From Gammaproteobacteria bacterium (lineage in GTDB: Bacteria; Pseudomonadota; Gammaproteobacteria; CAJXQU01), in NCBI GenBank assembly GCA_965238175.1, contig CBDEGZ010000003.1:2627885-2691884 (forward strand): a stretch of 64,000 nt of DNA, given 5' to 3'. Under the pieces are notes generated by a model. It ran no database searches, was not told the DNA's origin, and saw nothing but the letters and a program-made list of their open reading frames with translations. A program made the position numbers and the translations under genes. This document shows positions 42,871-46,074 of this stretch, in pieces (within the stretch, counting starts at the first letter, position 1; each line of letters opens with the position of its first letter).

Positions 42871-44346
42871 TTACTGTGAAATTAGCCTACATGTCGGCTC
42901 CCGTTGCATTACTTCCATCGATACCGAGACTTGTTCTTCAATAAACAACACAGACCTTCCACATTCCAAAATCGTCTTAACTTTCTCTATCGCCAGTCTC
43001 ACAGGAAACCCAAAACGTGCGCCACGATGATTCCGTTTCATTCTGGTAAGATCAAGCTTTTTAGCAACAACCTCATCGGAATGATGATAAAACTCATAAA
43101 ACTTCCCCACCCGAAAGAACAACACGTCCCCAGGAAAACGCCAGCGAAAATATCCATACTGTTGACTGACTCGCTGAAAGTTCTTTGGTACAGCATATTT
43201 TCTGATCAACTTCCAGCTAACACTATCAAACTCAAAATACTGCTGCAAATAATCAAATCTGTTCCAAATCGATTGCCACAGGTTCCAGCAACTGGCGAGT
43301 TTAAAATGTCCCAGATACGACGATAGCATTGCTGATAATTTATCCAGCAAAGTAATATCAAAGCGATAGCGCGTGACACCGCCCCTTTCTTCAACCAGCA
43401 AGGATTCATAGTCACACAATTGTTCCTTAAGGTGATTCACCACCCGCCGCCTCACCAGCATATAATCCCGTCGCACGATATAACCGAGAAAATCCAGCCC
43501 ATTCGAAACTGAGGCTAGCGGCTGTCGTGAGTTGAGTTGTAACTGGCGATGTTCATTCAGATTAACTTCTATCTGACTTTTCCATTCCAGTAGTTGCTCT
43601 CGCTCCTTTGCCAGCAGCACAAAATCATCACAATAACGTAAGTAATACCGGCACTTCAATTGATGCTTAATCAGATGATCCATACCGGTCAGATAGACAT
43701 TGGCAAAAAACTGGCTATTCAAATTACCGATGGGCAATCCTTTATTGTCACCACAACCAAACAGGGTTTTATGTGCGGGTATTCGTCCAGTTAAATCACG
43801 TCCCCGAAAAATATGGTTCTGTGTACAATCATGATAGACCAGTATTTTCGTCAACCATAATGCCGTGTCATCGTTAAGCTTTGCCGACAATAAGCCATAA
43901 AGAATATCCTTATCAATGGTCATGAAATAATTACGGATATCCAGTTGCAAATAATACGCTGGTTGTATGCCGTTGCAGGTCACTTGTCGAATAAACCGCT
44001 GTAGACGTTTCACACCACGATGCACTCCTTTGCCTTTTCGACAGGCATAGGAATCATGGATAAATATTGGTTCCCAGATTTTCTCCAGATAATCTACCAG
44101 TAAATGATGCACCACACGGTCACGAAAATCGGCAGCAAAGATTTCGCGTAACTTAGGTCGAGTTGAAAAAAAGCAGACAGAACGGGTCGGCTGGTAAGTA
44201 CGATTGATCAATGACTCTCGCAGGCTCAACAGTTGTTTCTCCTGCTCAGCTTCAAAACGCAATGCATTAATTGTGTTGCGCTTATTTCTGCGACAGGCGT
44301 AATACTGCCGATAGAGATTTTCAAGCGACAGGTCGAGAGTGATCAT
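42871..44346 (-). CDS. Diversity-generating retroelement reverse transcriptase with C-terminal MutS domain-I-like extension
   Basis: RT motifs: LDIRNYF (motif A), the DGR-diagnostic LPIGNLNSQ in place of QGxxxSP, and [11 protein letters not shown] (YxDD). Residues from about 395 to the end read [78 protein letters not shown]. This aligns with E. coli MutS [81 protein letters not shown]. Confidence 0.85.
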   Translation of the reverse strand: [491 protein letters not shown]

Positions 44347-44479
44347 TCTCCGGGGCGAACGGCAAGGGCAAACAAATTATTAGTCTTATTGTTGTTGTTC
44401 TGGTTGCCGTTATTGAAGTTAAAGTTCAGCGCATTAGAGGAATTCAACTCCACGCCTGACCAGTAGTTATTCGACTGGA
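44347..44479 (-). repeat. DGR template repeat (TR), about 130 bp, abutting the RT start codon
   Basis: Homologous to 45382..45515 at an offset of 1036. The coding-strand reading is an Asn(AAY)-rich pseudo-ORF (SNNYWSGVELNSSNALNFNFNNGNQNNNNKTNNLFALAVRPGE). 14 of 15 mismatches to the VR fall at TR adenines. Confidence 0.85.
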
Positions 44480-44699
44480 CAATTACCTGCCCTCTTTCCG
44501 ATAGTATCCTGAGGATAAACTCACAAAACGGATACCACCCCACCGGCAAGAAATCTTTGTAATAAAGTAGCCTTGCCTGAATTAACATGCCAGAGAAACT
44601 ATTCTCAGGCGGGACAGGCGCACAATGATACACGTTGGTACGCTTACCTGAACTGTCCATACAAACAGGACAAATTAACAGATAATTCTGACTCTCTCA

Positions 44700-45071
44700 T
44701 CAAACTACACCTTTTTCATTTTTTCGTACTCGACTGCTCCTTATCCAGCCCTCGTTCTGTCTGCAAACTGACACCACCTGTTCGATGGCAAATTGAAATG
44801 ATTTAAAACTTTTGAAGGCCTTTGCCTCTTTCGCTATACGCACGAGTATCAATAATTCATCGAGCTGTTCGCGCAAGACCAGAAGATGAGGGCGCTTATC
44901 CCTGGCGGCATTGGCTTTCATAATCAGGGAAACCACTACACGGCTTTTGTTGCGTAGTTCTGTGCCGAGCGTGTATTTGTGATAACGGGAGAAGCCCGAA
45001 ACCACTTTTTCGAAATAAACGGCCACATCCATCGCTTGTTTGTAAATCGGAAGATGTTCGTATCTTGCCAT
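44700..45071 (-). CDS. avd: DGR accessory variability determinant (Avd; four-helix-bundle protein, TIGR02436-like)
   Basis: 123 aa basic protein between the target gene and the TR. Helix pattern HKYTLGTELRNKSRVVVSLIMKA / LREQLDELLILVRIAKEAKAF / FQFAIEQVVSVCRQNEGW is typical of the Avd family. Confidence 0.65.
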   Translation of the reverse strand: MARYEHLPIYKQAMDVAVYFEKVVSGFSRYHKYTLGTELRNKSRVVVSLIMKANAARDKRPHLLVLREQLDELLILVRIAKEAKAFKSFKSFQFAIEQVVSVCRQNEGWIRSSRVRKNEKGVV

Positions 45072-45294
45072 GAGTAAAATTCCTTTTTCTGTAGCGCTTG
45101 TAGGTCGGATTACAACTGCATATATGCCGGAGGTAAGTAGCGCAGGAGCAGTTACCGAGCGCAGCGTAATCCGACAAATAATAAATGCTGGATTATGCTA
45201 TCGCTAATCCAACCTACAAATTCAAAACCGCAGGGGGCGTCCCCTACCCCCCTAAAGGGTCAAATCATACAAATGACCGAATGACCAAATTACG

Positions 45295-46074
45295 TTACCG
45301 CCGTTTCCTTCTAAACCCTGCCAACCCAAACAATGCGGAACCCATCAGCCATACAGCCGCTGGAACTGGGACGGCGGCAACATCGCCGGGGCGAACGGCA
45401 TGGGCAAACAAATTAAAAGTCTTATTGCGGTTGCGCTGGTCGCCGTTAGTGAAGCTAAAGAGCAGCGCATTAGAGGAACCCAACTCCACGCCTGACCAGT
45501 AGTTATGCGACTGGAGGTTGGTGAATTGGCCTACGTTGTTGAGTCCAGCGCCTGTTTGTGCGACACAGCCGGTTGGGGCGCTGTTGTTGGGTGTGCAAAA
45601 GCCCAGGTTGCCCAGCGTTGCGTAGTATAAATGACCCATTTCTGAGACTGGGGTGTTACTACTGTTCTGCCAGCCGATGCCAGTGGCGCCTGTACCAATG
45701 TCGCTGGTGCCGTTGTTGGTGAAGCCGGTCTGGAAGCTTGTACCATTGATGGGACTTAGGCTTGGCAGGCGCCAGTCGTTGAAGCCGAGGTGGTTGGCGC
45801 TGTTCATGCCCGCTATCCACAGGTTGGCGTTGTCCCAGGTCATGCGACCGGTGCTGCCAACAGTGTTGGCGGTGTCGTCAGCTTCATTGGTGCTGAGTGT
45901 CAGGCCAAACTGGTTGGTCAGTGCCAAGTTGGCATTGGAGAGCCAGGTGATGTCCAGTACATCATCATAGAGGGCATCGCCGCCCAATCTTGAGATTAAG
46001 GTGGCGTGGGCGGTGCTGCTTAAGCAAATGAGTAGTGTTATTACGCTGAAAGACTTAATACTGATGAGTTTCAT
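45295..46074 (-). CDS. DGR target protein: secreted DUF1566 (Lcl C-terminal / C-type-lectin-fold) protein with C-terminal PEP-CTERM exosortase sorting signal
   Basis: Signal peptide MKLISIKSFSVITLLICLSSTAHA. DUF1566 hallmarks (DITWLSNANLA..., NDWRLPS, ...AVRPGD). The VR lies at residues about 187-230. The C-terminus is VPVPAAVWLMGSALFGLAGFRRKRR, a PEP-like motif with TM helix and RRKRR. Confidence 0.8.
   Translation of the reverse strand: MKLISIKSFSVITLLICLSSTAHATLISRLGGDALYDDVLDITWLSNANLALTNQFGLTLSTNEADDTANTVGSTGRMTWDNANLWIAGMNSANHLGFNDWRLPSLSPINGTSFQTGFTNNGTSDIGTGATGIGWQNSSNTPVSEMGHLYYATLGNLGFCTPNNSAPTGCVAQTGAGLNNVGQFTNLQSHNYWSGVELGSSNALLFSFTNGDQRNRNKTFNLFAHAVRPGDVAAVPVPAAVWLMGSALFGLAGFRRKRR
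45382..45515 (-). repeat. DGR variable repeat (VR) inside the target gene, with a GC-rich IMH-like 3' end
   Basis: Aligns base-for-base with the TR. Substitutions N->H/G/L/S/T/D/R/R/F and others arise only where the TR coding strand has A. The 3' end GCCGTTCGCCCCGG is GC-rich and carries the single non-adenine difference (position 45401 versus TR 44365). Confidence 0.85.

Follow-up and report, generated by a model that had tools for sequence, protein, structure and literature searches.

The window considered here, a stretch of 64,000 nucleotides from a genome assembly of a Gammaproteobacteria bacterium (GCA_965238175.1, contig CBDEGZ010000003.1), encodes on its minus strand, at positions 42871..44346, the reverse transcriptase (RT) of a diversity-generating retroelement (DGR), and we find that this 491-residue protein carries after its thumb a copy, about 95 residues long, of domain I of MutS, a protein that acts in mismatch repair. 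An earlier note, made from the letters of this DNA and its open reading frames (ORFs) without database searches, had proposed such a fusion, and it is borne out by the Pfam family MutS_I, by alignment with proteins of the PDB and by the fold predicted with AlphaFold2 and searched with Foldseek. The RT fingers and palm lie at residues 65-289 (43480..44154, minus strand; Pfam RVT_1, E = 1.4e-15), and the MutS domain-I-like module, delimited by MutS_I, by the predicted fold and by family conservation, lies at residues 393-483 (42898..43170, minus strand); the interval 42871-43170 holds the codons for residues 393-491 and the stop. RVT_1 and MutS_I are the only Pfam domains in this single uninterrupted ORF, which ends 8 residues past MutS_I, and the protein thus has no ATPase or MutL-signalling parts; MutS domains II-V (connector, lever, clamp, ABC ATPase and dimerisation helix) are absent from it by Pfam.

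A hidden Markov model search of the tail against PF01624 had been suggested as a check, and the match is significant. The full protein matches MutS_I at residues 393-483 with E = 3.3e-10 and 40.6 bits in Pfam-A, twice the curated gathering cut-off of 20.6, and the 99-residue tail by itself scores E = 2.6e-11. The MutS equivalog models of NCBIfam match the tail through their N-terminal positions 5-90, and when the tail was compared with PDB sequences by phmmer the only matches were MutS proteins, Taq MutS (1ewq) at E = 2e-4 among them. In the HMMER alignment the segment of the RT hairpin with F416 and E418 falls on LFQVGDFYECF of Taq MutS and on its equivalent in E. coli MutS, so that these two residues correspond to E. 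coli F36 and E38; the retention of the Phe-x-Glu motif that the earlier note had read from the sequence is therefore confirmed, F416-Y-E418 (43093..43101, minus strand, codons ttt tat gag) aligning with GDFYE of both proteins. AlphaFold2, supplied with 29 family sequences, modelled residues 378-491 with a predicted local distance difference test score (pLDDT) of 89.8 and a predicted template modelling score (pTM) of 0.84, and the model places G414-K-F416-Y-E418 on a beta-hairpin. The proposed structural comparison with MutS domain I came out equally clearly: Foldseek found 47 PDB matches to this model at E<=1e-3, every one of them domain I of bacterial MutS or of human MSH6 or MSH3, with TM scores of 0.52-0.76 normalised to the query at sequence identities of only about 21-27%. 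The likeness of the tail to MutS domain I is far beyond chance similarity.

The remainder of the protein is a DGR RT by the same kinds of comparison. The full-length model (pLDDT 89.7, pTM 0.78) has as its best PDB match the Bordetella DGR RT (bRT; 8ub7_A, E = 4.9e-21, TM 0.83 when normalised to the 328-residue target). The DGR motif-4 signature IGxxxSQ is present as IGNLNSQ at residues 206-212, a stretch without variation in the family, and the whole motif region, residues 206-216, is of DGR type; among 71 aligned family members G207-N216 are invariant, F213 and F214 included, as are Y238-D241 of the catalytic YCDD (residues 238-241).

A search with the RT over 5.8 billion proteins returned 5493 relatives at E<=1e-10, and the best 120 of these, which are 57-86% identical to it and mostly 490-550 residues long, supplied a homologue alignment of 112 sequences of at least 470 residues. 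The tail is present in all 112 of these full-length homologues, and Q396, Y397, G414, E418, R441, G446 and R482 are invariant in them. F416 is kept in 106, with Tyr in five and Leu in one, and Y420 (110 of 112), F447 (108) and P448 (109) are nearly fixed as well. In the same set the mean identity to the window RT is 44% for the tail, as opposed to 68% for the RT core, so that the fixed residues stand out amid tails that have otherwise diverged, which argues for a specific constraint on the MutS mismatch-contact hairpin; judging from this alignment, purifying selection acts on the Phe-x-Glu hairpin. The fused domain is also strongly basic, with a family mean isoelectric point (pI) of 10.7 and a net charge of about +10; the copy in the window has a pI of 9.7.

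Fused proteins of this kind are numerous and widespread. At 90% identity the family falls into at least 112 clusters (a search of 50%-identity representatives returned mostly contig-truncated fragments and hence gives no clean family size), and a precomputed PF01624 match is recorded for about two thirds of the best 120 relatives. When one genome per species was scanned, 25 loci came to light, in Gammaproteobacteria (Contendobacter, Thiohalocapsa, Methylomonas, Methylobacter and Thiothrix), in Betaproteobacteria (Thiobacillus, Gallionella and Sulfurimicrobium), and in Planctomycetes, Nitrospirales, Nitrospinota and Desulfobulbia. RT and tail form one complete ORF in eleven of the 25, and most of the remaining loci show a shorter ORF over part of the RT core, which a contig end explains in some cases. 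In 12 related loci the accessory gene avd is retained beside the fused RT, the cassette order target, avd, template repeat (TR), RT-MutS_I is conserved across related loci, and in most of them a target of the Lcl_C/DUF1566 type with a PEP-CTERM tag accompanies the fused RT. The fusion defines a sizeable chromosomal lineage that extends across several phyla. One of these genomes, Thiohalocapsa marina DSM 19078, has avd and RT-MutS_I twice on one contig (L015, 873-2366 and 6763-8256); the two copies, 5890 bp apart, are apparently identical, and either the cassette is truly duplicated in tandem there or the assembly is at fault.

In the window the RT belongs to a complete cassette in the order target, avd, TR, RT, all on the minus strand. 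The TR (44350..44479) abuts the RT start codon with its 3' end and forms a direct repeat with the variable repeat (VR; 45386..45515), which encodes residues 187-230 of the target; over 130 nucleotides the two differ at 15 positions, 14 of them TR adenines, and the sole remaining difference is a T in the TR at 44365 opposite an A in the VR at 45401. The 123-residue Avd protein (44700..45071) matches Pfam bAvd (E = 1.7e-12; 48.2 bits, cut-off 40) and NCBIfam DivGenRetAVD (E = 1.7e-11). Its presence runs counter to the implication in the earlier note that the fusion takes the place of Avd or HRDC accessories; no HRDC match was found by Pfam in the five cassette ORFs scanned. The 259-residue target protein (45295..46074) has an Lcl_C/DUF1566-type domain (Pfam Lcl_C, E = 5.4e-8) and a VPLPA/PEP-CTERM sorting tag (NCBIfam VPLPA-CTERM, above its cut-off). 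With a DGR-type RT whose closest structural match is bRT, an Avd gene, and TR/VR mismatches at TR adenines, the locus is a genuine chromosomal DGR of the Avd type. The target is a small protein of secreted type in which the VR lies directly ahead of the sorting tag (residues 234-259). No inverted repeat of 7 bp or more occurs directly 3' of the VR, the site of a hairpin in some DGRs. Across the TR runs a 105-residue ORF (44343-44660, minus strand) with a weak Lcl_C match (E = 0.01), and the TR thus apparently lies inside a degenerate copy of the C-terminal coding region of the target.

The fusion bears on how the cDNA of a DGR is installed in its target and how the dense heteroduplex so formed escapes mismatch repair; those who have made DGRs work in E. 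coli have disabled mismatch repair globally, by deletion of mutS or with a dominant-negative MutL, so as to preserve the substitutions. In the mechanism that we propose for the fused protein, the RT and Avd would copy the TR RNA into adenine-mutagenised cDNA, which would pair with the parental VR to give a heteroduplex dense in mismatches. The tethered domain would then bind those mismatches by inserting its conserved Phe and using its conserved Glu as MutS does, while the strong positive charge of the tail might stand in for the missing clamp. Because the tail would not signal to MutL, it would act as a local cap that keeps host MutS off the heteroduplex, and by preventing an all-or-nothing reversal of the new VR the cap would raise the yield of diversified alleles.

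Circumstances in other DGRs are consistent with such a role. In Bacteroides, deletion of the host mutS gene raises VR mutagenesis 5- to 10-fold and leaves the mutation pattern unchanged, an effect read by its authors as all-or-nothing repair of VR heteroduplexes (bioRxiv 10.1101/2024.11.15.621889), and the recurrence of genes for separate MutS-like (MSL) accessory proteins in natural DGRs (PMC5758913) would, by analogy, count for capping as well. From the conserved mismatch-contact residues, the basic charge and the lack of ATPase and MutL-signalling parts, and from these analogies, we tentatively favour the idea that the tethered domain binds cDNA:VR mismatches and caps them locally against host MutS, with a confidence somewhat short of even. 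The two functions put forward in the earlier note, shielding of the heteroduplex from host MutS and recruitment to it, are plausible. That the module is an autonomous, ATP-independent mismatch cap, with which the retroelement would inhibit host mismatch repair in cis and shield the mutagenised cDNA:VR heteroduplex, seems to us rather doubtful. If capping is true, the domain would be a small portable part with which DGR, retron or oligonucleotide edits could be protected locally.

Several considerations weigh against the capping mechanism. MutS engages a mismatch as a dimer equipped with clamp domains, and a lone domain I is perhaps a weak binder; moreover, a single domain tethered to the RT would be set against over ten mismatches in each VR. 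RNA or an RNA:DNA hybrid is an equally conceivable ligand of the domain, whose placement on the RT is a predicted one (pTM 0.78). The Bordetella phage DGR works without a MutS-like part and its retrohoming is independent of host MutS (PMC5758913), and in the library of papers searched neither the fused domain nor any MSL protein is the subject of an experiment.

A different role, which we consider unlikely, is that the domain aids cDNA synthesis by gripping mispaired primer termini or the RNA:cDNA hybrid, and so might favour extension past misincorporation opposite template adenines. Its covalent attachment just past the thumb, with a defined packing in the full-length model, would suit such a task, as would the conservation of its Phe and Glu residues. 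On the other hand, most DGR RTs, including the 328-residue bRT, mutagenise adenines without any such domain, and what domain I of MutS recognises is B-form DNA with a kink, not an A-form hybrid. In the general DGR mechanism adenine mutagenesis makes its mismatches first in the RNA:DNA hybrid (PMC12875486), which would suit an aid to synthesis; in other DGRs, however, MSL is a separate protein (PMC5758913), and this is a better fit to a role after synthesis.

It is likewise improbable, in our estimate, that the domain serves chiefly as a targeting or anchor module, one that would hold the RT and its cDNA at the VR heteroduplex or at the replication fork and contribute to repair evasion only secondarily. 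The strong basic charge suits general tethering to DNA, and the conserved QQY coincides with an N-terminal segment of MutS that we take to be its proposed beta-clamp contact. QQY, however, belongs to the structure of the domain-I fold in every MutS protein, so that its conservation is not specific evidence, and the invariant Glu418 argues for a base-specific contact over simple tethering. Dependence of retrohoming efficiency on the direction of replication, and its limitation by a single-stranded DNA exonuclease, are described in PMC12875486, and imply that access to the fork matters.

Still less is to be said for the domain being a structural or vestigial appendage, concerned with folding, oligomerisation or docking of Avd or RNA, that has MutS ancestry and binds no mismatches, and we think this very unlikely. 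The faster evolution of the tail relative to the RT core might be expected of an appendage, and about a third of the best 120 relatives fall below the precomputed Pfam threshold for MutS_I; yet the residues that have stayed fixed are the mismatch-contact motif of MutS and its beta-hairpin (G414, F416, E418 and Y420), and the domain is kept in every full-length family member aligned, across several phyla. Finally, that the MutS tail is an artefact is vanishingly improbable, since chance similarity is excluded by the Pfam score and by a fold match exclusive to the MutS family, and a frameshift joining two genes, which the earlier note had raised against its own reading of a single protein, is excluded by the one continuous ORF that over 100 homologues share and that eleven independent genomes contain.

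Copies of the module also occur outside RT genes. Short ORFs of about 110-170 residues match the RT-fused module with E values of 1e-33 to 1e-45 against the family profile (L001/L012 6001-6489; L017 5992-6342; L019 286-633; L027 3031-3366; L028 261-728) and retain QY, VG-x-F-x-E and RRGARYGFP. No RT gene lies near the module in L001/L012 (P0134), L017 or L027 (P0144), where the neighbours include genes for an H+-PPase and a secretin or for Ldh_2 and NMT1 proteins. The modules of L019 and L028 are near the ends of the retrieved segments, so an upstream RT is possible there; that of P0136/L028 is 260 nucleotides from the segment end and has no RT downstream. We considered whether the orphan ORFs are stand-alone MSL genes beside a tail-less RT and rejected this, as those that could be placed have no RT nearby and hence are no record of a split between RT and MSL. 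Lost DGRs may have left these ORFs as relics, or they may be genes in their own right, and the preservation of the motifs in them hints that the module might be able to work alone. Two further proteins have MutS_I in other settings: P0267 (1329 residues) has three MutS_I stretches together with a DarA_C (defence against restriction) domain, and P0250 (442 residues) consists of two MutS_I stretches and nothing else. Beyond MutS and DGR RTs, MutS domain I has thus found further use as a repeated module.

The cassette is flanked by housekeeping genes, a formate-tetrahydrofolate ligase gene on one side and an adenine phosphoribosyltransferase gene on the other, and the wider region is chromosomal (nusA, infB, pnp, smc, ligA, ppc); an Rfam scan of the window gave one tRNA only. 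The G+C content of positions 44001-46000, the target/avd/TR part, is 0.487, compared with about 0.39-0.42 on either flank, and in the closest relative (L002, from an uncultured gammaproteobacterium, 86% RT identity) the cassette does not have the flanking genes fhs, apt and ClC beside it. The higher G+C content and the different neighbours suggest that the cassette was horizontally acquired. No obvious integrase is present near it. A phage or plasmid origin was considered and rejected: tblastn of the tail against 50,697 phage records gave no match and against plasmid records only genuine mutS genes, and no relative was confirmed when IMG/VR viral contigs were scanned with the domain profile.

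Two statements of the earlier note on what is already known do not hold. It took the fusion to be undescribed; in about 20% of DGR RTs the C-terminus is extended, by as much as about 150 residues, and three related RTs among them bear a C-terminal MutS_I motif, a similarity termed 'weak' by those who reported it (Wu et al. 2018, NAR 46:11, PMC5758913). A MutS_I fusion to a DGR RT has in fact been in the literature since 2017. The note also counted the Legionella DGR among those that lack such a part, and an MSL gene is reported there, the MSL family being present in 16 of 372 DGRs (PMC5758913). Msl also occurs in Bacteroides DGRs (bioRxiv 10.1101/2024.11.15.621889); it is listed in a 2021 review and is cited in a 2026 preprint as ground for suppressing mismatch repair in engineered DGRs. 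The architecture will therefore be no surprise to a DGR specialist. What is new here is the size and spread of the lineage, the conserved order of its cassette, a Phe-x-Glu kept almost without exception, the confident assignment of the fold, the basic charge and the orphan copies of the module. The lineage is a useful handle on the relation between MSL and mismatch repair, since a mismatch sensor with a fixed Phe-x-Glu that is welded to its RT makes a compact object on which the suspected link can be tested.

Among known systems, the RTs of Wu et al. resemble the one in the window most directly, each being a DGR RT with an extension past the thumb that matches MutS_I; compared by their published description only, they differ in being three cases of weak similarity, whereas here the match is significant by both sequence and fold and Phe-x-Glu is conserved. 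MSL proteins (Architecture D) are likewise homologues of the mismatch-recognition part of MutS within a DGR cassette, always with avd and never with HRDC (PMC5758913), as at this locus. They are encoded by a separate small ORF of 112-283 residues, whereas the module here is part of the RT ORF, in the window and in the family, and they are near neutral (pI 7.2 +/- 1.7, from published values) where the fused domains average 10.7. The tail at this locus is the fused form of the MSL accessory function. With domain I of bacterial MutS it shares the fold, QQY, the G-x-F-x-E beta-hairpin and G-(I/F)-P; MutS goes on to domains II-V, and the RT tail, which is domain I only, thus cannot be a MutS that initiates repair. 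The DGR of Bordetella phage BPP-1 (bRT-Avd), finally, shares with this one the RT core fold (27% identity to bRT), a partner Avd protein, adenine mutagenesis between TR and VR, and a target that is variable at its C-terminus, but bRT has 328 residues and no C-terminal domain as against 491 residues here, and that element is phage-borne and diversifies a tail fibre, whereas the cassette in the window lies on a chromosome and has an Lcl_C/PEP-CTERM surface protein for its target.

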